Assembly (NCBI GenBank): GCA_964496365.1
Contig: CAZBZK010000007.1
Span: 1 to 47,483, forward strand
Direction: 5' to 3'
DNA from: an uncultured bacterium
Lineage (GTDB): Bacteria > Fidelibacterota > Marinisomatia > Marinisomatales > AB-629-J13
Length of the DNA stretch: 47,483 nucleotides
Shown here: piece by piece, positions 19,335 to 36,496 of the stretch
Layout of the letters: every line of letters starts with the position of its first letter
How positions within the stretch are numbered: the stretch's first letter is position 1
Notes under the pieces: generated by a model
The model's input: only the letters and a program-made list of their open reading frames with translations
The model's database searches: none
What the model was told of the DNA's origin: nothing
Position numbers and translations under genes: made by a program

Positions 19335-20103
19335 TGGATTTATGTTTCATCTTTTGTTTCAATTCAGAATGAGTCTGACTTAATATTTGGCTTACTCTCC
19401 CTTCGGATAGGTTTAGTACAGTACCTATATCGGAAAGGGTTAAATTTTCATAATAATATAACGCAAGAATAAGTCGTTCTCGTTCAGATAATGCCTGGAT
19501 GTGACCTTTCAATTCATCTCGCAATTCCGATTCATCCATTTCTTCTTCTGGAGAAGGTTGGTTTTTATCCTCCATTATATCCATTCTGGACAAACTCTCA
19601 CCGTCATCATTTGCGAAAGAGTCATCCAGAGACACAGGTAAATTCAATTGGGCTAAATGTAATACCTTGCTAATATCATTGTGTTTTATTCCTGTTTCAT
19701 TTTGAAGTTCCAACAGAGAAGGTTCACGATCTAAATCCCTGGAAAGTTTTTCTTTCGCTGCATTTACCTTCGACAATTTCTGCATTTGATCTCTGGACAA
19801 AATACCCGTTCTTCTCAATGCATCAATTATCTCCCCATGAATCCTTCGATAAGCATAGGTTTTAAATGCGGTACCATTCTCAGGATCAAATCTTCCCAAT
19901 GCAAATAAGAGACCCACCACTCCAAATTGAAACAAATCATCTCTTTGAAGATTCAAATAGGTTCCAACATTAATTTTTCCTACGATGTGCCTTACTAAGG
20001 GTAAAAAGGCTCGAACTGCTTGATCTTTAATTAATTCATTTCCGGTATTGCAATATTCTCTAACTAAAGCTTCACCATCCATTTTTTTATGTTGCTGAAT
20101 CAT
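19327..20103 (-). CDS. fliA: Flagellar sigma factor FliA/WhiG (sigma28)
   Basis: DDLFQFGVVGL, RFDP...FKTYA and LSERERLILALYYYENLTLSDIGTVLNLSEGRVSQI. Confidence 0.94.
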   Translation of the reverse strand: MIQQHKKMDGEALVREYCNTGNELIKDQAVRAFLPLVRHIVGKINVGTYLNLQRDDLFQFGVVGLLFALGRFDPENGTAFKTYAYRRIHGEIIDALRRTGILSRDQMQKLSKVNAAKEKLSRDLDREPSLLELQNETGIKHNDISKVLHLAQLNLPVSLDDSFANDDGESLSRMDIMEDKNQPSPEEEMDESELRDELKGHIQALSERERLILALYYYENLTLSDIGTVLNLSEGRVSQILSQTHSELKQKMKHKSNV

Positions 20104-20109
20104 GAGATA

Positions 20110-20343
20110 TCAAGCACTTTGATTTAATTTTTGTTCTTCATCAAGGGAAGTTCCTTCATTTGGAGACATCATAACAACTCCCCATTTCATCAGTAATCCA
20201 CCTACGAAAAACACAAATAAAACACCAATATAGACTATTATACTTCTGATTATTCCTGTGAAAATTGAAATATTTATTGCCAAACTAATTATAAAACTAA
20301 TCAATGCAATAATTAATGCAATTTTATGTGGAAATTTATCCAT
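20110..20343 (-). CDS. Small two-TM membrane protein between flhG and fliA
   Basis: Two hydrophobic segments; overlaps the flhG stop. Confidence 0.7.
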   Translation of the reverse strand: MDKFPHKIALIIALISFIISLAINISIFTGIIRSIIVYIGVLFVFFVGGLLMKWGVVMMSPNEGTSLDEEQKLNQSA

Positions 20344-21208
20344 TGGCAGGTTCTATTTCTACATGCTTATAATTCATAAATCGCTCGAAAAAACTGTCTC
20401 TTTTTTTGGTATCCGTAACCGGCATTTTCATTAATCTACGGGTAATCATTCTTAGAGAATTCACCGGAACAGAATTTGGATAAAATAGAGATACTGGTTT
20501 TTGTTTTTGAACCGAATATTGTATAAGATTATCTTTAACGATAGATCCTCCATAAATCAAAGAACTATTCAAAAATCGTTGAACCATCAGGTTCATTTTT
20601 TTAAACATCGATTCACCATTTTCTTCATTCTCAACCATATTTGATACCATAACCACAGGGACATGTGGGTTTGAATGTCGAATTACTTTCACCATTCCGT
20701 ACGAATCTGCGATTGAAGCTGGATCAGGAGTGACAACCAAAATAATTTTATCAGCACCTACTACAAACGACATCACAGCATTATGAATGCCTGCTCCTGT
20801 ATCAACTATGACTGTATCATATTGATGATCAAATTGACTAAAAGAATCACCAAGTTTTTGAAGAATATTATTTTCTAAATCCAACATGTCTAAAATTGCA
20901 GATCCCGCTGGTAAAATATCAATTCCACCAGGTCCTTTGGTGATGACATCCTTCATCTCCACCTCACCTTTTATAACATCTGCAATTGAATAATTTGGTC
21001 GGATTCCCAAAAGCAAATCTACATTTCCTAAATGAATATCAGCATCGATTAATAAAACCCTTTTTTTCATTTTTGACATTAAAAGTGCAAGATTTACACT
21101 TATATTTGATTTGCCTACACCACCTTTTCCACTAGTAACAGCAATAATTTCCGGATGAAGTTTATCCATTTTCAAAACCGAAAGCGAAAATTGTTTCAAA
21201 TTATTCAT
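20336..21208 (-). CDS. flhG: MinD-like flagellar number regulator FlhG/FleN
   Basis: TSGKGGVGKS, DADIHLGNVD, VDTGAG and TPDPASIADSY; amphipathic SFFERF tail. Confidence 0.9.
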   Translation of the reverse strand: MNNLKQFSLSVLKMDKLHPEIIAVTSGKGGVGKSNISVNLALLMSKMKKRVLLIDADIHLGNVDLLLGIRPNYSIADVIKGEVEMKDVITKGPGGIDILPAGSAILDMLDLENNILQKLGDSFSQFDHQYDTVIVDTGAGIHNAVMSFVVGADKIILVVTPDPASIADSYGMVKVIRHSNPHVPVVMVSNMVENEENGESMFKKMNLMVQRFLNSSLIYGGSIVKDNLIQYSVQKQKPVSLFYPNSVPVNSLRMITRRLMKMPVTDTKKRDSFFERFMNYKHVEIEPANG

Positions 21209-21244
21209 TAGACTATAATTTAAGATGATTTTTGGGAGTTATTT

Positions 21245-21385
21245 TTACCATTTTAAACTGTGGATTTTTGATAAAATTTTATTATTTACTATCATTTTTG
21301 ATTCAAACAAATATAAATTGGGATTCACTGAATTCAAACTTAAACCTTTTGAGAATAAATTACCACAATATGTTTTATGCATCAT
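21245..21385 (-). pseudogene. Probable remnant of the flhF 5' end (46 codons)
   Basis: Hand-translated: MMHKTYCGNLFSKGLSLNSVNPNLYLFESKMIVNNKILSKIHSLKW. Start overlaps the flhA stop in the canonical flhF slot; weak likeness to the FlhF N-terminus. Confidence 0.45.
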
Positions 21386-23444
21386 TAGGAAATTGAATTG
21401 AACCAAATGTGTTCAAATGTGTATCGGATGTAAGTTCGGAATAAGACAATACGGATACATTGGGTAAAACCGGTTCAATGAAGTTTCGAACATATCGTCT
21501 AATTTGAGGGGATACAAGAAGTGTTGGACGACGATTATCAACTATCATTTTTTCGATATTTTCACCAATGGATTTAAATAGCATATTGACTTGTTCAGGA
21601 GTCAACCCTAAATTACGGGAATTGCCTTTTCCAGCCTTGATTTCACTCATAATTTGATCTTCTAATCGGGAATCAAATGTGGTAACCGCAACGTCTATAT
21701 TACCATTTTTAAATACATTTGTAATGGTATCGGCGAGTGAAATTCTGACATATTCCGTCAATGTATCTGTGTCTTTTGTCATGGCTGCATAATCTGCTAA
21801 CGTTTCTAAAATAATGACTAAATTTCGAACGGGTATTTTTTCTTTTAATAAATTTTTCAGAACCTGAGTAACGGTACCTAATGGTAATAATTCCGGGACT
21901 AATCCTTCAACTACAGCACCGTGAGTTTCTTTTAAATGGTCTAACATCCTTTGAGTTTCTTGTCTGTCAAAAAGCTTCCAAGCTTTCCCTTTTAATACTT
22001 CCATTAAGTGAGTTGCAATTACCGCAGGAGGTTCCACGACTGTAAAACCAGATGCTTCTGCCCTCTCCTTTTGATCTTTTGATATCCATTTTGCAGGTAA
22101 TCCAAATGTTGGTTCGGTAGTGTCCACACCTACTAATTCAATACTATCGTTGGGATTTAATACCAGAAAATAATCCAACATAACTTCACCCTTTACAACT
22201 TCCACATCATGAATTTTAAATACATATTCACTAGATCCTAATTGAATATTATCACGAATCCTGATAGGTGGAACCACAATCCCCAATTCTATTGCCAGAC
22301 TTTTACGAATTGTAGAAATCCTATCTAAAAGATTTCCGCCTTGATTTGCATCAACAAGGGGAATTAATCCATATCCAATTTCAATCTCGAATGGGTCGGG
22401 ATGTAAAAATGATTCAATTTTTTCTTCTTCAACCATGGGTGATTCTTCTGTGTCATCATCCTCTTTTGTATCATGTTTAAATTTCGATGCAAGATATCCT
22501 ACAGTAAATAAGATTCCAGACATAATTGCAAATGGGAAAAATGGCATCCCCGGCATCAAACCAATGAGTCCAATCACTGCCGAGCTTACTATAACGGCTT
22601 TCGGTTGCTTGGTTATCTGTGATTGGATATCTGCTGCAAAATCAGATTCACTTGTTGCTCGAGTGACAATAATTCCAGCGGCTGTTGAAATTATCAAAGC
22701 TGGTATTTGAGCCACCAAACCATCTCCAATTGTCAATAAAGTGTATGTCGATGCCGCTTCACCCAGTGCCATTCCTAACTGTAATGTTCCGATGGCTAAT
22801 CCACCAATGATATTGATGACTGTCATAAGGATTCCTGCGACGGCGTCTCCCCGGACAAATTTACTTGCTCCGTCCATTGCACCGTAAAAATCTGCTTCTC
22901 TAGAAATAGTTTCCCTTCGTTCTCTGGCTTGGATGTCATCTATTAATCCTGCGTTTAAATCCGCATCGATTGCCATTTGTTTCCCCGGCATTGCGTCCAA
23001 GGTAAAGCGTGCAGAAACTTCAGCGATTCGTGTAGCACCTTTGGTAATAACCACGAAATTTATTATAACCAAAATCAGAAAAATAACAGCACCCACAATG
23101 TAATTTCCACCCACAACAAAATTTCCAAAGGATTCTATGATTTCTCCCGCATAAGCATCCCCTAGAATCAATCGGGTTGTGGCTACATTTAATGATAGTC
23201 TAAATAGTGTAATAATCAAAAGTAATCCAGGAAATACAGAAAATTCCAAGGGTCTCAGAACATATAATGCTACGAATATGATCACCAAAGCACCTGTGAT
23301 ATTCATAACCAAAAACATGTCAATAAGAAATGTGGGCATGGGTAATAACATCACCCCCAAAATTAACATAACAGCAATTCCCAACATGGTACTGCTGTTA
23401 GTTCCTAGTATGGAAGCAAATCTTGTATTCTCTTTATTAGCCAT
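21375..23444 (-). CDS. flhA: Export gate protein FlhA
   Basis: RIAEVSARFTLDAMPGKQMAIDADL, FYGAMDGASKFVRGDA and TIGDGLVAQIP. Confidence 0.98.
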   Translation of the reverse strand: MANKENTRFASILGTNSSTMLGIAVMLILGVMLLPMPTFLIDMFLVMNITGALVIIFVALYVLRPLEFSVFPGLLLIITLFRLSLNVATTRLILGDAYAGEIIESFGNFVVGGNYIVGAVIFLILVIINFVVITKGATRIAEVSARFTLDAMPGKQMAIDADLNAGLIDDIQARERRETISREADFYGAMDGASKFVRGDAVAGILMTVINIIGGLAIGTLQLGMALGEAASTYTLLTIGDGLVAQIPALIISTAAGIIVTRATSESDFAADIQSQITKQPKAVIVSSAVIGLIGLMPGMPFFPFAIMSGILFTVGYLASKFKHDTKEDDDTEESPMVEEEKIESFLHPDPFEIEIGYGLIPLVDANQGGNLLDRISTIRKSLAIELGIVVPPIRIRDNIQLGSSEYVFKIHDVEVVKGEVMLDYFLVLNPNDSIELVGVDTTEPTFGLPAKWISKDQKERAEASGFTVVEPPAVIATHLMEVLKGKAWKLFDRQETQRMLDHLKETHGAVVEGLVPELLPLGTVTQVLKNLLKEKIPVRNLVIILETLADYAAMTKDTDTLTEYVRISLADTITNVFKNGNIDVAVTTFDSRLEDQIMSEIKAGKGNSRNLGLTPEQVNMLFKSIGENIEKMIVDNRRPTLLVSPQIRRYVRNFIEPVLPNVSVLSYSELTSDTHLNTFGSIQFPNDA

Positions 23445-24534
23445 TTGCCATTGTTCCGCTTATGTATGGATTTTGTTTCTGCAACTGATATACTTTTGCT
23501 AATATTTCAGCTACTGCTTGATAAAATAGAGGAGGAATTTCCATTCCTATCTCCAATGATTGGTGCAAAGTTCGTGCCAAAGGTTTATCTTCAATAATTG
23601 GAATTTGATGTTCAGTCGCTAATTTCTTGATACGTTCAGCGATTTTACGTTGTCCTTTAGCAACAACTTTTGGAGCATCGGAGGGTTCATTGGGTGAATA
23701 CCGTAAAGCCACAGCAATGTGTGTCGGGTTTGTTACGACGACAGTAGCATCGGGAACCGCATTCATCATCCGTGTTCGACTTAATTGTTTTTGTAAAGAT
23801 TTTATTCTGCCTTTCACTTCAGGATTTCCTCTCTCCTGAGTTTGTTCCTCTTTGACTTCCTGTTTTGTCATTTTAATATTTTTCTCATAATCATAGTTTT
23901 GCCAGGCATAATCTGCTGCTGCTAGGAAAATCAAGACCACGGCTATTTTAATACTTAATTCGAATAAATTGTCTCCAATGAAACTCAAAATACCCATAGA
24001 TCCAATATTTGAAATGGTATAATAATCTTTTAAATGTCCATGAATCACACTATAGGCGATGATTCCAATGATGGTTAATTTGAAAATCCCTTTAATGAAT
24101 TCTACCATGGATTTGGCTGAAAATAACCGACTTATGCCTTTAATAGGATTTACTTTACTAAATTTGGGTGTAATGGCTTTGACAGAAAAAAATAAACCCA
24201 CTTGTCCAATATTACTTGCCAATCCTACCACCATTATCACACCAAGAATGGGACTAATAACATCAAAAAAATACAGGATTCCATTTTGAAAATAACTACT
24301 GATGGATTGGGTGTCAAATCGAGTAGTCATCAATGTAGCATAAATTTGGGTTGTAAACTTAGTAACACCATTTAAGACACTATGTCCCATATATTTTAAT
24401 GCTAAAATACCACCGATTAATACCGCTACGGAATTAACGTCAACACTTCTAGCTACATTCCCTTTTTCCCTTTCCTTCTTTCTTTTTTTTGGAGTCGGAG
24501 CTTCTGTACGGCTATGTTTATCTTGTGTTGGCAT
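23437..24534 (-). CDS. flhB: Export switch protein FlhB
   Basis: RTEAPTPKK, KMTKQEVKEE...GNPEVKGRI and an intact NPTH autocleavage site. Confidence 0.97.
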   Translation of the reverse strand: MPTQDKHSRTEAPTPKKRKKEREKGNVARSVDVNSVAVLIGGILALKYMGHSVLNGVTKFTTQIYATLMTTRFDTQSISSYFQNGILYFFDVISPILGVIMVVGLASNIGQVGLFFSVKAITPKFSKVNPIKGISRLFSAKSMVEFIKGIFKLTIIGIIAYSVIHGHLKDYYTISNIGSMGILSFIGDNLFELSIKIAVVLIFLAAADYAWQNYDYEKNIKMTKQEVKEEQTQERGNPEVKGRIKSLQKQLSRTRMMNAVPDATVVVTNPTHIAVALRYSPNEPSDAPKVVAKGQRKIAERIKKLATEHQIPIIEDKPLARTLHQSLEIGMEIPPLFYQAVAEILAKVYQLQKQNPYISGTMANG

Positions 24535-25332
24535 TTATGATCCTGAAAGCTGTCGAATTAACAATCCTGTGAACTCAATAATCTCATCATAAACCGAATC
24601 AAACAAGATTTGGAACACATTTAAAGACACTAAAAGCATAATGAGTCCTGATAAAATTTTTAATGGAAGGGTGATAAAAAACACATTTAACTGAGGCATA
24701 GTACGAGCCATAAACCCAACACCTGCATCAATTAAAATTAAAAATGCAATGGATGGAGCTGCAAATCGTACTCCAATTTCATAAATTCTGGACCCCCCCT
24801 TTACAATGGTTTCTCCAGCTTCAGGAGATAATTCTCCTATGCCCAGAGGAATCATTTGAAAATTCCCAAACATCGTTTTGATAAAAAAATGATGTCCATC
24901 TACTGCTAAAAGCAATAGGATCATAATTGGCAACCAAAACTGAGTAATAATCGGAATTTGCTCCCTGCTGTTTGGATCCATAACATTTGCTATCCCCATT
25001 CCCATTTGAAGTCCTACGATACCTCCAGCAATTGCGAATCCCTCAAAAATAATTCGTGCTCCGAATCCTATAATCAATCCAATTATTATTTCTCGACCCA
25101 CAAGACCAAATAACACCCATAGATTTGTTATATGTGGGATGGTTCCCAAATTTAAAAGGGGTCCAATGATCACTGTTAAAATCAATCCAAACATTATTCT
25201 TGCTTTAACGGAAATCATGGGATAACTAAAAATAGGCAACGTCATGAGCATAGCTGACAATCGAGTGAATACCAACATATATCCTGGAACCAATACCGGT
25301 AAGCGGTCAACTAAATCAAAAAATGGAACCAT
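24535..25332 (-). CDS. fliR: Export gate protein FliR
   Basis: Polytopic membrane protein; AGGIVGLQMGMG..NVMDP, DGHH and RTMPQLNVF. Confidence 0.95.
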   Translation of the reverse strand: MVPFFDLVDRLPVLVPGYMLVFTRLSAMLMTLPIFSYPMISVKARIMFGLILTVIIGPLLNLGTIPHITNLWVLFGLVGREIIIGLIIGFGARIIFEGFAIAGGIVGLQMGMGIANVMDPNSREQIPIITQFWLPIMILLLLAVDGHHFFIKTMFGNFQMIPLGIGELSPEAGETIVKGGSRIYEIGVRFAAPSIAFLILIDAGVGFMARTMPQLNVFFITLPLKILSGLIMLLVSLNVFQILFDSVYDEIIEFTGLLIRQLSGS

Positions 25333-25404
25333 GATAAATTTACATTAAGAGGGTAATTAATTAACCAATAGAATATAAAATTTCATTGAATCATTCAATT
25401 GATT

Positions 25405-25674
25405 TTAGGGAGACATAAATGGAATTTGGTACATAATCTCTTGTGTAAAATTAACCAACACATCCAAAAACCATGGAGTGAGTATTAAAAGTACCAATGC
25501 TACAACCGCCATTTTCGGAATAAAGGTTAACGTCATTTCATGAATGGATGTAACGGCTTGAAAAATTCCAACTGCTAATCCAACCAATAACGTCGTTCCT
25601 AATAGCGGTGTGGCTATATACAAAACGGTGATCAAAGTTTCTCTGCTGATATAAGCTACAAAATCCGGAGTCAT
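25405..25674 (-). CDS. fliQ: Export gate protein FliQ
   Basis: VGLAVGIFQAVTSIHEMTLTFIPK signature. Confidence 0.96.
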   Translation of the reverse strand: MTPDFVAYISRETLITVLYIATPLLGTTLLVGLAVGIFQAVTSIHEMTLTFIPKMAVVALVLLILTPWFLDVLVNFTQEIMYQIPFMSP

Positions 25675-26483
25675 TAAGAAAATCCTTTAACCAATGATTC
25701 AATAACAAGATACCATCCATCTACTAAAACGAATAAAAGCAATTTAAAAGGTAATGAAATCATGATGGGAGGTAACATCATCATTCCCATGGAAAGCAAC
25801 ACACTAGATACCACCATATCAATTGCCAACATAGGTAGATACAATAAAAACCCAATTTGAAATGCAGTTTTTAACTCGCTTATGATAAATGCAGGAATAA
25901 TTGTAAATATGGATAAGTCTTCTAATGACGTAGGTTTATCAGCTTGTCTCAATTGAAGGAAGAGTCCAATATCCCTTTCTCGAGTTTGATCTAACATAAA
26001 CGATTTTATGGGTATCGCTGCAATTTCCACTGCTTCTTCCTGCGTAATTTCTTCATTCAAATAGGGACGTAGTGCTGTATCGTTGATTTCTGTGATTACC
26101 GGTTTCATTATGAACACAGATATAAACAGTGCCAATCCAATCAAAATTTGGTTTGAAGGGACGGTTTGAGTTGACAAAGCAGACCGTAAAAAATGGAATA
26201 CGACAACAAGTCGTGTAAATGAAGTCATCATAATCAAAATAGAAGGTGCTAAAGATAATATGGTTATGAGAAAAACAATCTGCATTGTGAGAACAAAATC
26301 TGAGGGGGCAGATGCTTTCTCCAGTCCCATGGTAATTTTCGGGAGTATATTTTGAGCTTTGGTAAGACCGGGAAGAATGAATGCAATGAAGATGATTCCC
26401 ATCTTTTTTGGATTAAACTTGGTCATTTTAATATAATAATTTGGGTTGAAATGTGAAGTTAATTTCGGACCTTGGGATTTCAT
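25674..26483 (-). CDS. fliP: Export gate protein FliP
   Basis: LAPSILIMMTSFTR, PAFIISELKTAFQIG and MGMMMLPP...LPFKLLLFVLVDGW. True start may be a downstream ATG. Confidence 0.97.
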   Translation of the reverse strand: MKSQGPKLTSHFNPNYYIKMTKFNPKKMGIIFIAFILPGLTKAQNILPKITMGLEKASAPSDFVLTMQIVFLITILSLAPSILIMMTSFTRLVVVFHFLRSALSTQTVPSNQILIGLALFISVFIMKPVITEINDTALRPYLNEEITQEEAVEIAAIPIKSFMLDQTRERDIGLFLQLRQADKPTSLEDLSIFTIIPAFIISELKTAFQIGFLLYLPMLAIDMVVSSVLLSMGMMMLPPIMISLPFKLLLFVLVDGWYLVIESLVKGFS

Positions 26484-26929
26484 GTGTTCGATTGAATTTC
26501 ATCGCTAAAATCTTTCACCAGATTAATAGATTGATCCGTTATTCCCATCAATAATTTTTTTCCGTCAATTTCAACCATCATCAAGTATTGTTTCGGGCTA
26601 ATATGTTGTTTTCCTATAACCTCCATAGAAAAATATTCACTGTCGATGGAAAATTTGCTTTTATACCAGCGCAAACCAAGGATGATAAAAATAATTATAA
26701 CTCCGGTTATACCTAAAGTCTTCAGTAAATATTGGGAGTAATTGGATTGAAAAGGGACTGTTTGTCCATTTTGCCCCGTCTCTAATTGAGGAGATTTATT
26801 CCCATTTCCCTCACCTGGAAACATCATAAACACTATGATGACAAGTAATGCTGCAACTATTAGTGCAACCTTAGGATTAACCGTTGAATTTCCCCTATGT
26901 TTTTCAACGAATCGTTTAAGTTGGATCAT
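26480..26929 (-). CDS. fliO: Flagellar biosynthesis protein FliO
   Basis: TM segments followed by ISPKQYLMMVEIDGKKLLMGITDQSINLV; lies between fliN and fliP. Confidence 0.85.
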   Translation of the reverse strand: MIQLKRFVEKHRGNSTVNPKVALIVAALLVIIVFMMFPGEGNGNKSPQLETGQNGQTVPFQSNYSQYLLKTLGITGVIIIFIILGLRWYKSKFSIDSEYFSMEVIGKQHISPKQYLMMVEIDGKKLLMGITDQSINLVKDFSDEIQSNT

Positions 26930-27792
26930 CCCAAACTTTTGATTCTTTCTTTAGTGGAAGCCAATTTTGTGATTCTAATTCCAAAATTATCATCCACCAC
27001 CACCACTTCACCTTCCGCAAGTTTTCTGTTATTTACATAGATAGTCAATGGCTCACCTGCAGATTTGTCCAATTCAATTAAAGAGCCTTTTCCCAATTTC
27101 AAGACATCTTGAATTTTCATAGATTTGCGACCTAATTCAACCAATACTTCTAATTCAACATCCAATAACATATCAATATTTCTTGGAGTACCGTTGTCAC
27201 CATTCTCTGACGTAAACGTATCAAACTCCGCTTGAGATACATCCACAAAATCATCGGCTGATTCAGTGGAACCCCATGAATATTGGTACACTTGGATTAC
27301 ATCTTTTTCGATTATGAGTTTATGAATGGCTGCAACACCGCCATTCTCTGGAAGTGCTTTTGAAAATTCTTCTGCTGAATCAAAAACCGAAACCGTCACA
27401 TTTTTAAAGGAAAAATTCGTATCATTTTTTCCAATCAATTCCGATGTTTTTAATAATAGTTTCTCAATCCCATTTTCTAAAATTTCGCTATGGTCCTGCG
27501 GTAGGAATTCTTTTATTTTTTTTCCACTCATCATGGAATAAATTGCCGAACCTGAATCCATCCCCAATGTAAAAATATGGTAGAGATTAGAAGACTCCTC
27601 GGATGTTGAAAATTGAATTCCTAACAGAGGATATTCCTCACCTAATGCCTGTTCATTAAACAGAAGATCTTCTGGTATTTCGGAAGATACTTTTATTGAT
27701 TTTTGATTCAATACATCTTGGATACTTTCTGTTATTGAATCCTGATTGCTACTTAACCATTCGTTTAAACTATTTCGATCTAGGTTACTCAT
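26926..27792 (-). CDS. fliN: Switch protein FliN with long N-terminal (FliY-like) extension
   Basis: C-terminal SpoA domain LDVELEVLVELGR...LDKSAGEP...AEGEVVVVDDNFGIRI; about 200 aa divergent N-region. Confidence 0.9.
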   Translation of the reverse strand: MSNLDRNSLNEWLSSNQDSITESIQDVLNQKSIKVSSEIPEDLLFNEQALGEEYPLLGIQFSTSEESSNLYHIFTLGMDSGSAIYSMMSGKKIKEFLPQDHSEILENGIEKLLLKTSELIGKNDTNFSFKNVTVSVFDSAEEFSKALPENGGVAAIHKLIIEKDVIQVYQYSWGSTESADDFVDVSQAEFDTFTSENGDNGTPRNIDMLLDVELEVLVELGRKSMKIQDVLKLGKGSLIELDKSAGEPLTIYVNNRKLAEGEVVVVDDNFGIRITKLASTKERIKSLG

Positions 27793-28768
27793 TTTCTTCT
27801 CCTGTAGTAACTGAATTTATTCGACACGAATATCTTTGATGATATTGCCCAACGGTTGCCGAAAATATTTTCTTATTGTTAACGGTGATGGGTATATCTT
27901 GTGAGATACGAGTGTTTAGAGTTAATACATCATCGCATTCAAGTTGGATAAAATCTTGAACGGATATATTCACTTTTCCTAAAACCGCTCTTAACATCAT
28001 TTTAGTTTGATTTACACTATGTGCGACTTTGTCTGATCCCGTGATGGTAGGTTCTTTTTCACCTAATAAAAATTGTTCCTTTAAATCGAGAGATGATAGT
28101 AAGGAGGTAATCCATTTATAAGGATAACAAATATTCATCAACGTCGAATTTCCTCTAACTTTTGCTTCGATTGATATTATCACAACCGATTCAGATGCTG
28201 GAATAATTTGTACAAATTCCGGATTATGTTCGAACCGAGTAATTTGACAATTAATTTTTTTTAATGGATGCCAAGCTGTCTGAACTTCTTTACTTACTAT
28301 TTGAATCATTCGATTCATAATTCGTTTTTCGATGAGTGAAATTGGACGAGACTGTTCCATAAAACTTCCTTGCCCGCCAAGGAGCCTTTCAACGATAAAA
28401 ATAACCAGTTGAGGACTTATCTCGAATATAAATTTGGAATCGGGGTTTTCCAGTTTTCCAACATAAAGAGCTCCAGGTGTGGAAATGGATCGTACATAAT
28501 CGCCATATCGTATTTGATCCACCGCCACAAGATTCATATCTACAATCATTCGTAATTGTTCTGACAGATAAACGCTAATATTTTTAATCAAATTATCATG
28601 TAGATTTTCCATAAGTCTAATTTGATTTTTGTGTACTAGATTGGGATGTTTAAAATCATACATCCAGATTCCTCTATTTTCTTTGTCTGTCATAGAGATA
28701 GGATCACCGCTATCTGAGACATCGGTCAATAAGGCATCAATTTCTTCTTTTGATAGTATTGTAGACAT
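27785..28768 (-). CDS. fliM: Switch protein FliM
   Basis: ILSKEEIDALL, YDFKHP, RLLGGQG, NPEFVQI and MNICYPY. Confidence 0.95.
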   Translation of the reverse strand: MSTILSKEEIDALLTDVSDSGDPISMTDKENRGIWMYDFKHPNLVHKNQIRLMENLHDNLIKNISVYLSEQLRMIVDMNLVAVDQIRYGDYVRSISTPGALYVGKLENPDSKFIFEISPQLVIFIVERLLGGQGSFMEQSRPISLIEKRIMNRMIQIVSKEVQTAWHPLKKINCQITRFEHNPEFVQIIPASESVVIISIEAKVRGNSTLMNICYPYKWITSLLSSLDLKEQFLLGEKEPTITGSDKVAHSVNQTKMMLRAVLGKVNISVQDFIQLECDDVLTLNTRISQDIPITVNNKKIFSATVGQYHQRYSCRINSVTTGEENE

Positions 28769-28798
28769 AAGTGTATTAAAATTAAGTTTAGATTTTTG

Positions 28799-30397
28799 TT
28801 ATCGTTTTAATCTGGATGCTTCATCCATGACTTCATTTAATGTTGTCATGACTCTAGATGTTGCTTGAAAACCTCTTTGAGCTTCTATCATTTGAGTAAA
28901 TTGATTTGCCAAATCCACATTGGACATCTCTAACGCTCCCGATTCTATAACGGAACCATTTTCATCTGCTGTATTGATGGAGGAATCTCCACTACTAGCC
29001 GTTTCAACATATAAACTACCTGCAACTTTTTCCAAACCATTTGAATTGGTAAAATTCGCAGTTCCAATTTGTGCTAAATCAAGTTTCTCACCATTACTAA
29101 ACAGTCCTTTTAATATTCCATTTGCATCCACATTTATTCCTGTAAGAAATCCCGCTTGAATTCCATCTTGTTTCCTCATGGAAAGACTGGAAACGGACTC
29201 GAATTGAGTTACTCCAGAATACCCATTTTCTGATGCAAAATTAAATTGAACGTTTAGGGGTGTAATTCCCGTACCCGGATCAAAGGTAAACTCTGTTGAA
29301 CCATCTTCATATTCAAATGATTGAAAATTTCCATTTGAATCAAACGATAGCATACCAGTTTCACCATTCAAAATTGTTTCAGAACCATTCACTTCTACTT
29401 GAACTTTCCATTCACCAGAATTTTCTGTTTTTTCTAAATTTATCGTTAATTCATGTGCCTGCCCCAATGAATCATAAACCACCATGGAAGTTTTAACAAT
29501 GGGAATATATCCTGACGTGAGATTTGCAAATCCCGGAAAATCACCCATACCGATATTATCAGTGTCTTCAGTAATTTCGATTGATGTTTGACTCAATCCA
29601 GTTTCTTGATCGGTCATCACAATTTTTCCATCCCGCAATATTACCTTAGATTGATTCCCAAATGTTTCGTCTATTTTATTCATCAAATCTTGTATGGTAA
29701 TTCCATCATAGGACTCACCAAATATAAATGATGAAGATACTTCCGTCCCTTCTCTATTGGTCCCGGAAATTAAAAGTTTATCTTCTTCCTGAAATGCTTT
29801 AGAAATTTGCATGAGGTTATTTATTTCAGTGGATTCAACAGCATATTCCTCCATTCCATTTGACATCATAGTTAAAGCACGAATACTAGACCATTCTTCC
29901 TTTGCAGGAGTTAATCCTGCATTCAAATTTCCATTTAACCAAACATTATTGGTTGATTTTGCATTTGACATTAAATTTTGATCAATGACGATATCGCCAA
30001 TTTCTGCACTTTTCTTTGAGCTATCATTTGGATCTATTGTCCAACCTTGTACTGGAAATTTTTGCCCATTAATTAAGGTACCATCATTTTCAAATGAGAA
30101 ACCACCATCTCTTGTAAAATATTTATCTTCACCATCTTTTAATATAAAAAATGAATTTCCTTGAATCGCTAAATCGGTTACAATTCCTGTTGATTGGAAC
30201 GCTCCTTGATTAAATGGAGTTTGAGTAATTCCAATCGTAGAACCAAATTGTTCGGCAAATGTCATTCGTGAGGATTTGTAGCCAATTGTATTTATATTAG
30301 CAATATTATTACCTATCATTTCCAGTTTTGATTGCTGGGCATTTAATCCCGATAAGGCAGTTGAGAAACCATCTATATTTTGATTTGTTGTAGTCAT
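28799..30397 (-). CDS. flgE: Hook protein FlgE
   Basis: IGNNIANINTIGYK, FTRDGGF, GNLNA, VYDSLG and GALEMSNVDLANQFTQMIEAQRGFQA. Confidence 0.95.
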   Translation of the reverse strand: MTTTNQNIDGFSTALSGLNAQQSKLEMIGNNIANINTIGYKSSRMTFAEQFGSTIGITQTPFNQGAFQSTGIVTDLAIQGNSFFILKDGEDKYFTRDGGFSFENDGTLINGQKFPVQGWTIDPNDSSKKSAEIGDIVIDQNLMSNAKSTNNVWLNGNLNAGLTPAKEEWSSIRALTMMSNGMEEYAVESTEINNLMQISKAFQEEDKLLISGTNREGTEVSSSFIFGESYDGITIQDLMNKIDETFGNQSKVILRDGKIVMTDQETGLSQTSIEITEDTDNIGMGDFPGFANLTSGYIPIVKTSMVVYDSLGQAHELTINLEKTENSGEWKVQVEVNGSETILNGETGMLSFDSNGNFQSFEYEDGSTEFTFDPGTGITPLNVQFNFASENGYSGVTQFESVSSLSMRKQDGIQAGFLTGINVDANGILKGLFSNGEKLDLAQIGTANFTNSNGLEKVAGSLYVETASSGDSSINTADENGSVIESGALEMSNVDLANQFTQMIEAQRGFQATSRVMTTLNEVMDEASRLKR

Positions 30398-30420
30398 ATT
30401 TTTCCCGGTTAATTAATTTA

Positions 30421-30834
30421 TTACACGACGCTTAATGCATCAAGATTTGAAAAAACATTATTTTGTAATTTACTTTCACTAACGGATGAAATGATGGTTT
30501 GGTTTTTCACATTCATTACAAATGCAATGGAATCCATCATTAATAATCCGGATGATACATGTTCATTTTTTAATTTTTCCAAACCATTTTCCAATCGTTT
30601 CATTTGTTCATTTGATAATGGCCCATGTATAGTTTCCAATTGTTTAAAAGCGTTTTCTGAAAAGCGAATTGAGTTATCCTCAAGTATTTTTTTATCCAAT
30701 ATATTCTGAAATGATTTTGTGTCAAAATCTGGATTTAATTGTTCGATATTCATCGAAGGATTAGATGAATCTTTGATAGGTCTCGATTGTAATTCGTGAA
30801 TATGTGTTTGGGATTGTAAAACGCCTATTCGCAT
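30421..30834 (-). CDS. Flagellar operon protein, TIGR02530-like (divergent)
   Basis: IRFS..A...LS.EQM.RLE...LLMMD..AFVMNVKNQTII...NVFSNLD pattern; lies between flgD and flgE. Confidence 0.8.
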   Translation of the reverse strand: MRIGVLQSQTHIHELQSRPIKDSSNPSMNIEQLNPDFDTKSFQNILDKKILEDNSIRFSENAFKQLETIHGPLSNEQMKRLENGLEKLKNEHVSSGLLMMDSIAFVMNVKNQTIISSVSESKLQNNVFSNLDALSVV

Positions 30835-30837
30835 TAT

Positions 30838-31518
30838 TTAATTCTCTATTTGATTAATTTCTATAACTTGATTAAACGGAATCTCTTTATCATTCACCAC
30901 AAAGACCGCTGTCCCATCTGTATATTTTATTCCTGTAATAATACCTTTGATCATGGGTACATAATCAACTGAATCTCCATTGGAATCTTCTGCTATAATT
31001 TGGAAATCATATTCACCTTGAGGTACGTCACGACCATTCTCAGTTTCCCCATTCCAGTCAACATGGTGTACTCCTTTTGGTGTTGCTCCTAATTTTATTT
31101 TGTTTATAACGTTTCCTGCTTTATCTAAAATATTGACTGAAACGTTTTCAGCTTGACTGTTCAATTGAAAGGAAATTTCAACTGGTTGATCCTTGACATA
31201 GGAAATTCTGTTACCCGATGCTGACACACCCTTTCCAATAAATGTTGTTGCCATTGTGTTATTAATAGCTTGAGTGAGCATTAAGTCAACCTGCATACTT
31301 TCTTCCATCATTCCACTCATATTTGTAAGTTGTTCCAATGAACTAAACTGGGCAAGTTGAGAAGCAAAATCTTGACTATTCATAGGAGACATAGGATCTT
31401 GGTGTTTTAATTGTTCAACCAATAATTTTAAAAACTCATCTTTTTTCATGGAATTATTTCCAAGACTGGTTAACTCGGATTGATTAGTGGCATTGGTTAA
31501 TAGTGATACTTCGTTCAT
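30838..31518 (-). CDS. flgD: Hook capping protein FlgD
   Basis: [28 protein letters not shown] and Ig-like WNGETENG...GEY. Confidence 0.96.
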
Positions 31519-31532
31519 ACTGTTCTTTCTCT

Positions 31533-32441
31533 TCAGGCTATTATTTCTATGGTATTATATCCAAATTTTCGCATAACGGGATCGGCTAATTGAATATCGT
31601 TTTTATCTTCAATCTCTATTGAAATATTTTGTGTGAAAGTTTTTGTATTTTGTCCTTCTTCTTTGTTTGGATTGACCTCAACATTAAATGACTTAAATTT
31701 CATTCCTTTTTCATTTAAATTTTCTTTTATTTCAGGAATGAGTTTTTCGAAATCTGATTTTAGAGATTCCGATTCTACAAACACTATTGCTTTTGTTAGT
31801 GCAAATTTTTGACTCAATTTTATTTCTAATTCACCTAACGGTCCAGCATTCAATTTGTAGGTAGCGTTTTGTGCGTTATTGTTTACATAATTTTGATTAA
31901 CAATTTGAGTTATTTTAGAAATCACTTGTATTCTATTAATGGATTGAACGGATTTCAATTGAAATTGGGAATAATTCATATTTTTTACATCATAAAAGGT
32001 CGGTATTTTTACATTTATTCCGTTTGTAGAATTCGATTTAAGTGATCCCAGATTTTTGAATGAATTTTCTAATGCTGTTTTTTTACTGTCAACAATATTT
32101 TTAGATGCTGAATTAGATTTTGGATTGTCATCTACTTTTTCTGTTAATGACTTTTCACCTTGTTTTTGATTTTCAACATTGGATGTAAATTGTTTATCTA
32201 ATTTTTCTGTATGATTATTTTTTGGTAATATTTGTGAATCAGACATTCCATATGTATCACCAAACTTCTTTAATACGGTCTTATTCACTTTGCCACTTAA
32301 CTCAGTATTTTTCAAAAATTGAATAATAATCGGTTGAAATGACGAAGCAAACCCATGTTCAGGTTGAGGCATATCTGTTCCGTCAGAATTGGATTTAACC
32401 TCCATATTTGTATCTGGTATATCAACGAGATTCAATTTCAA
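31533..32441 (-). CDS. fliK: Hook-length control protein FliK
   Basis: Low-complexity N-half and C-terminal T3S4-like [13 protein letters not shown]...L.E.G; directly upstream of flgD. Confidence 0.78.
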
Positions 32442-32994
32442 TTCCCTCTTCTTTTTTTACACCTGCTAATATTTCTGTTATTTTTGCAGCTCGCTTGGGG
32501 TTCAACGCTTTAAAGATTGACTTTTTACTACGATTACTCATGCTTTGATAGATAGCAATTACCGTGCCATCATCAACATTCGATAAAATGGGCTTCATTT
32601 CTTCCGGTTTCATAGATTCATAGGTTTTAGCTAATACTTTAATTGATATGGATTTATTTTTTAAGGTTTCCACTTCATCTAACAATCTCTTATACTCATC
32701 TATATTATCAGTTATAAGGTTGTCCTTAAATAATATTTCAGATTCTAAACTGTCTATTTTTAATTGTGTGGACATGGAGTCTTCTTTGCATTTATCATAC
32801 ATAATAGTTATGGAATCTAATTTTGTAAACACAGGTGGAATCGAATCAAGCAAGGAGTCCGCAGCATATTCTCCAATTAAATCGGAAGTATTTTCCACAT
32901 CCTCATTCTGATTAAAAAAGAAAAAATAAGCAAGACTTCCTCCCACTACGAACACTAGTACCAATATCAGAACCCATAAAATGATTTTTTTCAT
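32422..32994 (-). CDS. MotE/FlbB/YlxF-like flagellar protein (TM, coiled coil, MgtE-N-like repeats)
   Basis: LAKTYESMKPEE...L...M...I..ALNPKRAAKI; lies between fliJ and fliK. Confidence 0.8.
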   Translation of the reverse strand: MKKIILWVLILVLVFVVGGSLAYFFFFNQNEDVENTSDLIGEYAADSLLDSIPPVFTKLDSITIMYDKCKEDSMSTQLKIDSLESEILFKDNLITDNIDEYKRLLDEVETLKNKSISIKVLAKTYESMKPEEMKPILSNVDDGTVIAIYQSMSNRSKKSIFKALNPKRAAKITEILAGVKKEEGIEIESR

Positions 32995-33437
32995 GATTCA
33001 TCTAATCCAATTTTTTGGGATTTTCGATTAGCAATTTCATCCGTTTTCTTTCTATCATATCTTTTAATATTTTTTTTATGTTCATCAAATTTTCGTTCTT
33101 TTAATTTTTCCACTGCTTTTTTATCCTTAGATGCAGATTTTAATTTTCCTAATCTGTTTTCAATCTCTTTTTCCGCTACATTAATTTGATGCTCTTCTCC
33201 TTCAATTTCTTTGTTTATTTGATTTAAATAATCAGTAGAAATACTTAGTTGGTTTACTGTCAACTTTTCATGATTTCCATTTATAATTAATTGCTTTTTG
33301 TCCTCTATATTTTCAAGATTTTTTTCTAACTCTTTCTTTTTCTTTCTTGATTGACTTAGTGCTTCTGTTTTCTGATTTTCAATTTTTTTCCGATAATCAA
33401 GAACTTTTTCCAGAGGAAATAAAAATGTTTTACCCAT
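32991..33437 (-). CDS. fliJ: Export stalk protein FliJ
   Basis: FLFPLEKVLDYR start, coiled coil and KAVEKLKE...DEIA; follows fliI. Confidence 0.9.
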   Translation of the reverse strand: MGKTFLFPLEKVLDYRKKIENQKTEALSQSRKKKKELEKNLENIEDKKQLIINGNHEKLTVNQLSISTDYLNQINKEIEGEEHQINVAEKEIENRLGKLKSASKDKKAVEKLKERKFDEHKKNIKRYDRKKTDEIANRKSQKIGLDES

Positions 33438-33439
33438 AT

Positions 33440-34759
33440 TTATTTATTTAGAATATTCGATAATGTTTTTAGAGTACTTTCAAAATCAGACGGTTCATCG
33501 ATACCTTGGCGTAATAATAGATCAATTTCTGATTTTAGTTTGATTGCAAGATCCACTTTTGAATTACTTCCTGATGAATAAGCTCCAATGGAGATCATAT
33601 CCTCTGCTTCTTTATATTCTGAAAGTAATTCCAAAATTTTACGTGATGAATAAAGGTGTGATTCATCACATATATCAGGAAATAACCGACTGACACTTTC
33701 CAAGACATCCACAGCTGGGAAATGACCTTTAGTCGATAATTTTCTAGACAAAATGAAATGTCCATCCAAAATTGATCTAACCGTATCACTAATTGGGTCA
33801 TCCATGTCATCACCCTCTACCAATACTGAATATAATCCTGTAATACTCCCTACTTTTCCGGCTCCTGTCCGTTCTAATAATCGTGGTAAAAATGAAAATA
33901 CTGATGGTGTAAAACCCTTTGTTGTAGGAGGCTCTCCAACTGCTAAACCAATTTCACGTTGTGCCATAGCTACTCGAGTTAAGGAATCCATCATGAACAT
34001 GACATCCTTTCCCTGATTACGAAAATACTCTGCGATTGCAGTGGAGATTAATGAACCCTTTATTCTTTCCATCGCAGATTGATCTGAAGTAGCAACTACT
34101 ACAACCGATCGTTTTAATCCCTCAGGACCTAAATCTCTTTCAATAAATTCTCTTACCTCCCGTCCCCGTTCACCAATTAAGGCAATTACATTCACTTCTG
34201 CACGAGTAAACCGAGAGATCATACCTAACAACACACTTTTTCCCACTCCGCTTCCTGAAAATATTCCAACTCTTTGTCCTTTTCCCAAAGTAAGAAATCC
34301 ATCAATTGAGCGAATTCCTGTTGCCATTACTTCCTTAATTCTCTGTCTTTCCAAAGGATTTGGTGGATTATTGTAAACGGGTTGAAATGTGGATTCAACT
34401 ATGGGTCCTTTTCCATCAATGGGATTCCCCATTCCATCAAGAATTCTACCCATTAAAGAAAGTCCAACTGGAATCTTCATAGGTTGGGAATTAACAGATA
34501 CAGGACTTCCCGGAGATACTCCCATTATTTCACCGAAAGGCATCATAAGTATTTTATCCCCTCTAAAGCCAACAATTTCTGTCTGCAAAATCCGATTATC
34601 TTTAGTTCGAATAGAACACAAATCACCTAAAGAACCTTCAATGCCCGTAGCTTCAATCACCATACCAATAATTTGAGAAATTCTTCCTTCAGAAGAAATG
34701 GTATCCACAATATCAATGGAATCTAAAATAGAATTAAATTTTTTATCCTTTAATTCCAT
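33440..34759 (-). CDS. fliI: Export ATPase FliI
   Basis: GSGVGKS, LIGERGREVREF, MDSLTR.AMAQREIGL and LDGHFILSR. Confidence 0.97.
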   Translation of the reverse strand: MELKDKKFNSILDSIDIVDTISSEGRISQIIGMVIEATGIEGSLGDLCSIRTKDNRILQTEIVGFRGDKILMMPFGEIMGVSPGSPVSVNSQPMKIPVGLSLMGRILDGMGNPIDGKGPIVESTFQPVYNNPPNPLERQRIKEVMATGIRSIDGFLTLGKGQRVGIFSGSGVGKSVLLGMISRFTRAEVNVIALIGERGREVREFIERDLGPEGLKRSVVVVATSDQSAMERIKGSLISTAIAEYFRNQGKDVMFMMDSLTRVAMAQREIGLAVGEPPTTKGFTPSVFSFLPRLLERTGAGKVGSITGLYSVLVEGDDMDDPISDTVRSILDGHFILSRKLSTKGHFPAVDVLESVSRLFPDICDESHLYSSRKILELLSEYKEAEDMISIGAYSSGSNSKVDLAIKLKSEIDLLLRQGIDEPSDFESTLKTLSNILNK

Positions 34760-35430
34760 TTCATATACTCTTGTTTTAGATGTTTTGTCAGAATATTCAA
34801 TTGATGATCCAAAGTTGCATCAATAAAAAATTCTTCAGATTCTATTTTACACTCACCTGGCAATAATCTGTCGTTCTTATGAAATTGTATTTTATGTTTT
34901 ATGGGAAATGAAATTTGTTCCAAAAACTTTTCCTGATTCATCTCCTTCAACCAATCTGGATTCAAATAGATATTTATTTTGGATTGGTCCATTAATCTGA
35001 GTAAAACATCTTTTAATCTTTTTGATAGATAATCAGCTATGTTTTTTTCATGATTCAATTCATGACCTAATATCTTTTTTGCTATTCGTACAGAAATATC
35101 TATTAATGAATCTTCGATAGAATTCAATCGGTTTTCATATTCGTTATTTAATCCGGAAAGCATTTGAGTAAAATCAGACGATAACTCTTTGACTCGTTCA
35201 TTCAAGTCACTTTTGGCTAACTCTCGACCTTCCTGAAAACCAGCCTGGTAGGCTGTCTCTCTGGTTTGTTCCAGTGCTTTTTCTAGAATCTCAACTTGAT
35301 CTTCCGATGACATTTCATCGCCTAAAACTACATCTGTATCATCTGGATTTGATTTTTGAATTGAATACTCTTCTCCATCATAAAATAAGTGAGTAATTGG
35401 ATGAGGTATTTTAATTGAACTTATTTCCAT
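34750..35430 (-). CDS. fliH: FliH
   Basis: AYQAGFQEG repeat, IYLNP and PGECKIES..FIDA; lies between fliG and fliI. Confidence 0.88.
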   Translation of the reverse strand: MEISSIKIPHPITHLFYDGEEYSIQKSNPDDTDVVLGDEMSSEDQVEILEKALEQTRETAYQAGFQEGRELAKSDLNERVKELSSDFTQMLSGLNNEYENRLNSIEDSLIDISVRIAKKILGHELNHEKNIADYLSKRLKDVLLRLMDQSKINIYLNPDWLKEMNQEKFLEQISFPIKHKIQFHKNDRLLPGECKIESEEFFIDATLDHQLNILTKHLKQEYMKWN

Positions 35431-35452
35431 TTAATCAGGAAATCTGAAAATG

Positions 35453-36490
35453 TTAAATTAATTCTTGTTCTTCACCACTTCTGGAAATACTTAGGTCTCC
35501 CTTGCTTTCCAGATCAAATACGACCTGTAGAACATTACTTTGGGCATTTTCAATATCTTTTAAGGTCATAGGTGGTAATACATCAATTTCATCACGAAGC
35601 ATCCCTCCAGCTCGTTCGGACATATTTTTATAAATTTTCTCTCTCAAATCCTCTTTTCCTCCTTTAAGAGCGGAAGCCAATATTTTATTATCAACTGCTC
35701 CAATAATGGCCTGAATAGCATTATCCGAAAGAGTGACAATATCATCAAACATAAATAAATACGCAGAAATTTCATTTGTTAATTCTTCATCCATATTTTT
35801 CAATCCATCCAAAATTATTTTTTGGTCTGATTGTCCTATGGCGTTTAGTAAATCAGCTGTGGACTCGACGCCACTCTTTTTCGCATCACCATCAGCGATC
35901 TCCGCACCAATTTGATCTCGCAATACAGCTTCTATATCTTCAATCAATTCAGGAGATATTTCTTCCAAAGTAGCTAGTCTGTATGCAATTTCTATTCGAT
36001 CGTTTTCAGGTAATTCAGCAAGCAATGTTGATGCATGATCAGCTTTTAAATTCGATAAAATCAAAGCAGCAGTTTGGGGATGTTCTTTTCGCATGAATTC
36101 TAAGAGCCGTTTTTTATCCACAGACCTTAATAAACTGAATGCACTAATGCCCGTTGCAATTTCTAAACGCTTAATAATATCGTCGGACTTTTTATCTCCC
36201 CATGTGTGTTCCAGCAAATCTTTTGCATAATCAAAACCGCCTTGCATTAGTGTTTCATTAGCAATCATAATTTCATAAAATTCTTGAATCACATGACCTA
36301 AAACTTCAGAGGGTATATCACGCAATTTTGCAATTTCAAAACTGATTTTTTCCACTTCAGAATCGGTCATATTTTTCATAACCTGAGCAGCATTATCTAC
36401 ACCCATTGCAATCAATAGCATGGCAGCTTTTTGTGAAGAAGATAAGTTTTCAGTAGTTAATGTATAAGGTTCAATCATAATAGAATTCAT
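35453..36490 (-). CDS. fliG: Rotor/switch protein FliG
   Basis: QKAAMLLI, GGFDYA, EHPQT, LFMFDD and ALKG...NMSERA. Confidence 0.96.
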   Translation of the reverse strand: MNSIMIEPYTLTTENLSSSQKAAMLLIAMGVDNAAQVMKNMTDSEVEKISFEIAKLRDIPSEVLGHVIQEFYEIMIANETLMQGGFDYAKDLLEHTWGDKKSDDIIKRLEIATGISAFSLLRSVDKKRLLEFMRKEHPQTAALILSNLKADHASTLLAELPENDRIEIAYRLATLEEISPELIEDIEAVLRDQIGAEIADGDAKKSGVESTADLLNAIGQSDQKIILDGLKNMDEELTNEISAYLFMFDDIVTLSDNAIQAIIGAVDNKILASALKGGKEDLREKIYKNMSERAGGMLRDEIDVLPPMTLKDIENAQSNVLQVVFDLESKGDLSISRSGEEQELI

Positions 36491-36496
36491 CTTAAA

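Follow-up and report, generated by a model that had tools for sequence, protein, structure and literature searches.

The gene cluster examined here appears to encode a flagellum from export gate to filament and holds no gene for a stator, which raises the question of what, if anything, turns the organelle. The original prediction, made from the DNA letters of this stretch, offered two answers: either the stator genes were relocated or, as it preferred, the filament assembles and does not rotate. The window, by which we mean the whole stretch of DNA analyzed, is the complete 47,483-bp contig C7 of a marine Marinimicrobia metagenome-assembled genome (MAG) of 1.83 Mb (146 contigs, 92.6% complete, 35.8% G+C). 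Ten genomes of its genus (coded g1), all of them MAGs, were compared, and eight of these carry flagellar genes. Every absence given below means that a gene was not found in assemblies that are 71-94% complete. Genes in the window were called by searching 56 open reading frames (ORFs) with Pfam and 12 with NCBIfam.

Gene content of the flagellar supercluster

The supercluster extends over ~39 kb (8348..47483, minus strand) and ends at the contig edge in a truncated flagellin gene. Since the window spans the complete contig, the cluster does run past the right edge, as the original prediction had supposed. From 8348 to this edge, all genes lie on the minus strand except one encoding a histidine kinase. 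Read down from 47483, genes for flagellin (cut by the contig end), fliS, fliD, flaG and a flgM-like ORF are followed by two-component genes, a sigma54 enhancer-binding protein gene, flgB, flgC, fliE, fliF, fliG, fliH, fliI and fliJ; then by an MgtE_N-like ORF, fliK, flgD, a TIGR02530-like ORF (59 bits, below its cut-off of 83.2), flgE, fliM and fliY/N; by fliO, fliP, fliQ, fliR, flhB, flhA, flhG, fliA and further ORFs; and by flgF, flgG, flgA, flgH, flgI, a flgJ-like gene and flgN, with flgK, flgL, fliW and csrA closing the cluster at 8348. This set covers the export gate, ATPase, MS-ring, C-ring, rod, L/P rings, hook, junction, cap and filament. The sigma-28-type sigma factor gene fliA (19327..20103, minus strand) has the domains Sigma70_r2, r3 and r4. 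The export-gate motifs are intact, as had been read from the letters: FlhB has NPTH at residue 269, FliP has MMMLPP at 234, and FliI has both Walker A (GSGVGKS) and Walker B (VMFMMDS at 253). Beyond the csrA/fliW end of the cluster, an adjoining gene (6325-8316) encodes a fusion protein of methyltransferase, GT2 glycosyltransferase and TPR parts that is possibly a flagellin-modification enzyme.

None of the 56 window ORFs matches the families MotA_ExbB, MotB_plug, OmpA, FliL, FlbD, FlhF, CheW, CheA or MCP, in agreement with the earlier observation that the cluster has no recognizable MotA, MotB/OmpA, FliL, FlbD or Che gene. The MgtE_N-like ORF was considered as a candidate FliL and rejected, the match being weak (E 3.3e-4) and limited to the N-terminal transmembrane (TM) region.

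Deletion of motA-motB-fliL between flgE and fliM

The hook gene flgE (28799..30397, minus strand; 532 aa, with FlgE_D2, Flg_bb_rod and Flg_bbr_C) ends 30 bp from the start of fliM (27785..28768, minus strand; 327 aa, FliM match 2.6e-49), as first noted, and the gene for a fliY/fliN-type switch protein follows (26926..27792, minus strand; 288 aa, FliMN_C, with FliY as the best NCBIfam match, below cut-off). Adjacency of flgE and fliM, with a gap of 28-38 bp, was found in 7/7 genus genomes that hold the junction (G000, G005, G007, G008, G011, G012 and G013). Logan contigs from seawater metagenomes also span the spacer with 0-1 differences, among them record 1 of run X1 (27500-28916, 0 differences) and record 18 of run X3 (28407-28916); runs X1 and X2 look like a single data set, and one of them may be the sample from which the window came. 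An assembly break at this point, which the original prediction had named as a finding that would overturn it, is ruled out by the shared adjacency and the bridging contigs. A 315-nt contig in X1 and X2 (window 28643-28932) swaps 128 nt around the spacer and the fliM start for 136 other letters, and has 14 further differences beside the swapped stretch and no stator insert; it looks like the junction version of a related strain.

The slot between flgE and fliM is where the original prediction expected the stator genes and fliL, and there they lie in 5/5 flagellated outgroups (G003, G004, G019, G026 and G033), in the order motA-motB-fliL. Slot contents were identified with Pfam in two of these, and fliL by FliL family search in the other three. 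The flgE-motA gap in the outgroups is 112-213 bp, and flbD is absent there too. Since all five outgroups keep motA-motB-fliL in the slot and those checked have a probable flhF after flhA, the deletion is derived in the genus: it inherited a flgB...flgE-motA-motB-fliL-fliM...flhA-flhF-flhG cluster and then deleted flhF and motA-motB-fliL, the latter leaving the 30-bp spacer (28769..28798, minus strand) as its scar.

Loss of flhF, and chemotaxis genes not found

The site of the flhF loss is the 166-bp spacer between flhA and flhG (21209..21374, minus strand), a gap that measures 92-202 bp across the genus. In the three outgroups tested with Pfam, an ORF of 363-389 aa for an SRP54-type GTPase, taken to be flhF, occupies this position, and G033 has a 367-aa ORF there, by its location a candidate flhF. 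The window genome has no FlhF above cut-off, and its best TIGR03499 matches are FtsY-like and Ffh-like ORFs; flhF has therefore been lost, as proposed from the window. Retention of flhG (MinD-like; window 20336-21374) without flhF is an unusual pairing.

Family searches of the window genome gave zero matches for FliL, FlbD, CheW and MCPsignal, and a best match of only E 0.097 for the CheA dimerization domain, so the lack of chemotaxis genes noted in the cluster extends to the genome search. CheW and FliL were found in 0/10 genus genomes, versus detection in the flagellated outgroups G019, G026 and G033. A jackhmmer search of all ORFs of at least 90 aa found two receiver (REC) ORFs in the whole assembly, both inside the cluster: a sigma54 enhancer-binding response regulator (39999-41381, minus strand) and a 202-aa response regulator (41440-42048, minus strand). 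Neither is CheY-like; the 202-aa protein finds no support as a CheY stand-in, its nearest solved structures being NtrC/RegA-type receivers. No CheY-like protein was thus found, yet FliM retains a CheY-binding-type N-terminal motif, LSKEEIDALL, present in 5/5 genus sequences and in 3/4 of the outgroups shown (G004 reads EINTLL). That FliL, FlhF, CheW, MCP and CheA were not found fits a reduced organelle. Outside the genus, G038 combines CheW (3 matches) with a MotA from the second of the flagellum-linked clades described below, and neither FliM nor FlhA was found in it; this genome may hold a flagellar remnant, or its assembly may lack the flagellar contig.

A stator-type motAB pair outside the cluster

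Searches of the window genome with PF01618 identified two loci, both on contig C1, one with MotA and the other with ExbB, two ExbD and TonB, while MotB_plug identified one. The motA gene (C1:31894-32679; PF01618 1.8e-25) is followed directly by motB (C1:32680-33477), whose product scores 61.5 bits for MotB_plug (cut-off 24) and 56.8 bits for OmpA. MotA scores 23.5 bits for MotA_N, below the 27.3 cut-off, and aligns full-length to MotA/PomA structures with hydrophobic segments at the expected places. The best PDB matches of the pair are flagellar MotA/PomA (2.4e-42) and MotB/PomB (3.9e-24). In MotB, TFADMMTLL aligns to the TM segment of MotB/PomB, and the channel Asp (TFAD) is present. The equivalents of MotA R90/E98 (ARK-G..ELE), P173 (MAPAWGM) and P222 (FFLPMA), in E. 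coli numbering, are invariant across the MotA clade to which this protein belongs (type O, below). R90 and E98 are also named in a recent study of MotAB homologs (PMC12505986). All NCBIfam equivalog scores fall under their cut-offs, with MotA at 177 bits for MotP (394) and 157 bits for PomA (341), and MotB at 152 bits for the MotB-family PRK08944 (259). By the tests of channel, plug/TM/OmpA and key residues, the C1 pair is predicted to be stator-grade. With full stator hallmarks present at C1:31894-33477, the strict claim that the genome has no stator is refuted. A motAB pair elsewhere in the genome, which the original prediction had said would count against it, is in this formal sense at hand, but as a member of a distinct paralog clade and not as the relocated flagellar stator.

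The ExbB locus bears on a different explanation, by which the flagellum would be driven by the single ExbB-ExbD2-TonB set or by an unrecognized protein. There is one ExbB/ExbD/TonB locus to supply such a drive, and six cluster ORFs have no family match. However, these ORFs encode just 77-139 aa and none has more than one hydrophobic segment, so they cannot be a MotA-like channel, and ExbBD is not known to power flagella. We therefore consider another energizer improbable.

Phylogeny and distribution of the type-O clade

A quick maximum-likelihood tree of MotA was built from 72 rows with ExbB as a long-branch outgroup; three duplicates and a MotA cut short by a TGA were excluded. Five clades were obtained. 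The window MotA falls in a clade of 34 rows that we call type O (support 100, long stem). A second clade (5 rows) contains the in-cluster MotA and comes from flagellated genomes only, and a third (5 rows) is likewise flagellum-linked. The two remaining clades are mostly from genomes without flagellar genes found, and stand apart from the first three, which join at 99. Members of these two remaining clades lie in clusters with tandem MotB_plug genes (G040:C125, L066; G026:C180, L067; L085-L088), ordered motA-motB-motA-motB-motB-like. In G006 (G006:C6, L034/L096), the type-O motA has one in-frame TGA.

The tree decides the fate of the first answer offered originally, that the C1 motAB once occupied the slot and was then relocated. 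A motAB pair with full stator features does lie outside the cluster, and such a location is known from Bacillus subtilis, in which motAB lie outside the fla/che operon. However, the C1 MotA has only 33-37% identity to the in-slot MotA of the outgroups, the two fall in separate well-supported clades, and G003 holds both an in-slot pair and a 75%-identical ortholog of the C1 MotA. The C1 locus also carries a remnant of a different operon (see below), and its relatives lie in a non-flagellar operon with FliF-like and FliG-like genes. Simple relocation is therefore ruled out by paralogy, and we give it next to no credence.

A second flagellar-type or in-cluster-type MotA was found in 0/10 genus genomes, while in each flagellated outgroup the same searches identified stators of both the in-cluster and the second type (E 1e-44 to 1e-50). 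A flagellar-clade stator is thus absent from all 10 genus assemblies. It could be argued that these organisms do have a normal flagellar motAB (perhaps with fliL) that no assembly has captured: all genomes are MAGs of 71-94% completeness, with that of the window at 92.6% in 146 contigs, and the type-O locus itself is missing from 4/10 (G005, G008, G010 and G012). G005, G008 and G012 are three of the eight genus genomes with flagellar genes. The type-O gap looks like an assembly gap, as the neighboring PPDK gene was not found in those four assemblies either. A flagellar motAB missed in all ten is nonetheless unlikely, given the success of the searches in every flagellated outgroup and an ancestral slot that is demonstrably empty.

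Outside the genus, type-O MotA (65-75% identity) was identified in 27/31 genomes of the order, with FliM and FlhA in just three of the 27 and neither found in 24. Across a phylum sample of 301 genomes, a MotA match to the type-O query (E <=1e-30) was found in at least 223 and FliM in at least 65. Among the matches listed, the type-O query was matched in 25/25 genomes of family f8 versus FliM in 0/25, and in 38/42 of family f10 versus 2/42, although weaker phylum-wide matches may be other paralogs. Sequence comparison thus indicates that type O is not tied to flagella and occurs with or without them.

The native operon of type-O motAB

Whether or not the genome is flagellated, type-O motAB lies in one operon in 15/15 genomes outside the genus, with the order f5-f3-f2-motA-motB-f4-f6. 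The first gene, f5 (~380 aa, CarboxypepD_reg-like), is present in 14/15, and the other locus begins at a contig end. It is followed by f3 (~310 aa, TPR/YfiO-like) and f2 (~457 aa, with C-terminal TPR repeats). Downstream of motB, f4 (~525 aa) combines one TM segment with a coiled-coil-like region and a YscJ_FliF_C match (4e-11 to 2e-8), and f6 (~310 aa) has FliG_N, FliG_M and FliG_C, each above cut-off. An example is L100 (G019:C46:3000-15000), in which the operon spans 2047-9612, and the same order is found in L097-L111. The neighbors of native type-O motAB are thus FliF-like, FliG-like and TPR genes, with no flagellar export or axial genes. A FliG_C family search identified one ~312-aa paralog in each of the 27 type-O genomes, and the three flagellated ones also carry a flagellar FliG of 337-339 aa. 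A protein-cluster search with the FliG paralog returned generic FliG clusters only.

Judged by these domains, the seven-gene operon may encode a non-flagellar rotor-stator machine. No description of the f5-f3-f2-motA-motB-f4-f6 operon was found in the literature searched, including the consulted parts of PMC12505986. As far as that literature goes, which is not proof, its order in Marinimicrobia is described here for the first time.

Remodeling of the type-O system within the genus

The genus departs from this arrangement. In 6/6 genus genomes with the locus, motA-motB stands alone, flanked by an Smr-domain gene on one side and by PPDK or asnB on the other. What is left upstream is a 30-aa remnant of f2, 70% identical and 165-250 bp before motA (G000:C1:31641-31730, L004:7641-7730). 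Its DNA sequence is strongly conserved across the six genomes, and it may function as a micro-ORF or regulatory leader. This remnant marks the C1 locus as a descendant of the type-O operon, and the only motAB in the genus is evidently, on sequence grounds, a paralog of non-flagellar origin. Beside motB in the window genome, the asparagine synthase gene is in four ORF fragments (G000:C1, L004:9531-11039), whereas G011 has one 529-aa ORF; the split gene is likely a pseudogene or the product of assembly errors.

Neither f5 nor a separate f4 or f6 was found in the window genome. On contig C8, however, an ORF on the minus strand (G000:C8:22386-23928, L120:8387-9928) encodes a 513-aa protein that begins like f4 and ends in FliG_M/C, with one TM segment between. 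Residues 23-164 resemble the f4 N-terminus (hhalign probability 74%, E 2.8e-5), the TM segment lies at 212-230, and the C-terminus matches FliG_M/FliG_C (9e-18), so the protein looks like a FliF-FliG-type fusion. Such FliG-domain ORFs were found in 9/10 genus genomes and in no other genome searched; seven of the nine are complete and have 512-518 aa. Two TPR genes come after the fusion (L120:7432-8418 and L120:6233-7423). The idea that the genus retained none of the type-O MotAB partners is overturned by this fusion and its two TPR genes: the machine was remodeled, not lost. The type-O system in the genus is thus rearranged, with motAB alone behind a new putative promoter region and the rotor-like genes fused elsewhere.

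Sigma-28-like sites of the form TAAA-N17-CCGATA lie 70-71 nt upstream of fliS (46995..47020, minus strand) and of the flgM-like ORF (44267..44292, minus strand). Upstream of the C1 motA, the exact sigma-28 pattern gave zero matches, and only a relaxed pattern, defined post hoc after the exact search had failed, fits: TAAA-N17-CGA(C/T)TA, 42 nt before motA and conserved in 6/6 genus genomes. Its N17 spacing matches that of the sites before fliS and flgM, and the copy in the window genome deviates at two letters of the -10 element. Across the whole genome, promoter positions show no enrichment of the relaxed pattern. Three short contigs of metatranscriptome X11 lie on fliM and flgE, which is no proof of transcription.

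Conservation of the flagellar rotor

The flagellar FliG of the window (35453..36490, minus strand; 345 aa), aligned to Salmonella FliG (8umd_B), retains the equivalents of K264, R281, D288 and D289 (as E) in its torque helix. In E. coli genetics, these four residues are needed for torque and not for assembly. The equivalent of R297 is T or P in 4/4 genus sequences (T in the window) versus R in 3/3 outgroups. For comparison, the 513-aa fusion has D, K and R at torque-helix positions where FliG has R, D and E, in a weak and uncertain alignment, and the paralog f6 has a 3-residue deletion at the torque helix, also in a weak alignment.

Within the genus, FliG identity is 81-85%. Between G000 and G013, identities are 81% for fliG, 71% for fliM, 87% for fliP and 87% for flhA, and the corresponding values in the stator-bearing pair G019-G033 are 81%, 76%, 86% and 85%. 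Relative to FliP, FlhA, FlhB and FliR, FliG and FliM are thus as conserved as in that pair. We used relative protein identities rather than dN/dS, as synonymous sites should be saturated when proteins are only 60-85% identical. The hook gene behaves differently, with flgE identity of 61-65% within the genus versus 89% between G019 and G033, indicating faster divergence in the genus. Type-O MotA, at 87-95% within the genus, is more conserved than FliM (65-78%). Neither this conservation nor the retention of motAB needs a flagellum to explain it, since type O has a non-flagellar home and its cognate fusion is present in 9/10 genus genomes.

What drives the flagellum?

Two readings carry most of the weight. 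In the first, which we judge to be about evenly balanced between true and false, the type-O stator now drives the flagellum. Type-O MotA5B2 units would be anchored to peptidoglycan via the MotB OmpA domain and would now bind the flagellar C-ring, either in addition to their earlier rotor or in place of it. The cytoplasmic loop of MotA would engage the FliG torque helix by the customary charge pairs, and the flagellum would still turn, without FliL, FlhF or chemotactic control. Rotation is favored by the conserved rotor with its torque-helix charges and FliM motif, by the charges of type-O MotA that match FliG and by structural genes intact in seven diverged genomes, and co-option by the derived deletion, by the stator-grade and highly conserved C1 pair being the only one found, by the uncoupling of motAB from its operon in all six genus genomes with the locus and by the element before motA. 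Co-option is disfavored by the loss of the R297 equivalent, the drift of flgE, the failure to find FliL, FlhF and Che genes, the imperfect motif and the fusion as an alternative client.

The second reading takes up the preferred answer of the original prediction: the flagellum is statorless, with type-O MotAB serving its own FliF/FliG-like fusion and a non-rotating filament used for adhesion, secretion or sensing. It is favored by the failure to find a flagellar-clade stator in any of the ten genus genomes, or FliL, FlhF, CheW, MCP and CheA, by type O in 24 relatives where neither FliM nor FlhA was found, by survival of the cognate rotor as a fusion in nine of ten genomes, and by the lost R297 equivalent and the faster divergence of flgE. 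Several features oppose it, however. The seven diverged genomes keep every gene for filament, hook, rod, L/P rings and C-ring intact, whereas Buchnera-type reduced flagella lose filament genes. Conservation of FliG and FliM against the export gate is no lower than in the stator-bearing pair, and the equivalents of K264, R281, D288 and D289 are kept together with the FliM N-terminal switch motif. The unrelaxed rotor conservation and the torque-helix charges weaken the non-rotating filament in particular, and we regard this reading as doubtful, though to be taken seriously. Overall, the original observation is confirmed and its interpretation partly supported: it was right about the slot, flhF and chemotaxis, while a strict absence of stators from the genome and simple relocation are both refuted.

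Comparison with known systems

MotAB homologs have been classed as FIT (flagellar ion transporter) or GIT (Puente-Lelievre et al. 2025, PMC12505986), with FIT described as flagellum-associated in that study. Type O resembles FIT in its plug, its TGI charges, its best structures (PomA/MotA) and its branching with the flagellar clades. In contrast to the flagellum-associated FIT so described, it occurs mostly in genomes without flagellar genes found. The text of PMC12505986 contains zero occurrences of Marinimicrobia, Bacteroidota and 'non-flagellated'.

Stator genes outside the flagellar cluster are in themselves ordinary. What is unusual is, first, a whole genus with an intact, selectively constrained flagellar gene set and no flagellum-linked stator, and second, that the MotAB of this genus derives from a conserved FliF-like/FliG-like/MotAB operon, most of whose carriers sampled have no flagellar genes. 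We tentatively suggest a broader reading, for which the case falls well short of even, of a phylum-wide, flagellum-independent rotary module composed of stator-grade MotAB, a mini-FliF (RBM3 domain plus TM), a three-domain FliG paralog and TPR/outer-envelope partners, which was remodeled in the genus, with its rotor genes fused and its stator genes uncoupled under a promoter of their own, and whose stator replaced the flagellum's own MotAB/FliL. If true, this would be the first natural stator exchange between a non-flagellar rotor and a flagellum, and a living example of a FliF-FliG-MotAB motor without a type III export apparatus. These observations bear on the origin and redeployment of the flagellar rotor-stator couple and on 5:2 ion-driven motors outside the flagellum. 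The genus represents a natural experiment in which either stators proved swappable between rotors or a filament-bearing flagellum was kept without torque.

The gene order flgE-(flbD)-motA-motB-fliL-fliM is found in clusters of the spirochaete, clostridial and Thermotoga type. The five flagellated outgroups represent this type here, without flbD. The genus has the stretches fliE...fliK-flgD-TIGR02530-flgE and fliM-fliY-fliOPQR-flhBA-flhG-fliA in common with them and differs by a clean lack of motA-motB-fliL and flhF. Several stator sets can serve one rotor, as with PomAB/MotAB in Shewanella, MotAB/MotPS in B. subtilis and MotAB/MotCD in Pseudomonas aeruginosa. The outgroups, with two flagellum-linked MotA clades plus type O, are like these multi-stator species, and stator exchangeability of this kind is the mechanism proposed for the genus. 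Unlike in those species, the native partner of the genus stator is a non-flagellar FliG paralog, and both flagellum-linked sets are gone. Reduced flagella are known from the hook-basal bodies of Buchnera and from Aquifex, which is motile without che genes. The genus resembles them in having lost chemotaxis and accessory motor genes while keeping those for export and the basal body; unlike them, it keeps its filament, cap, junction and L/P-ring genes and a stator-type MotAB.
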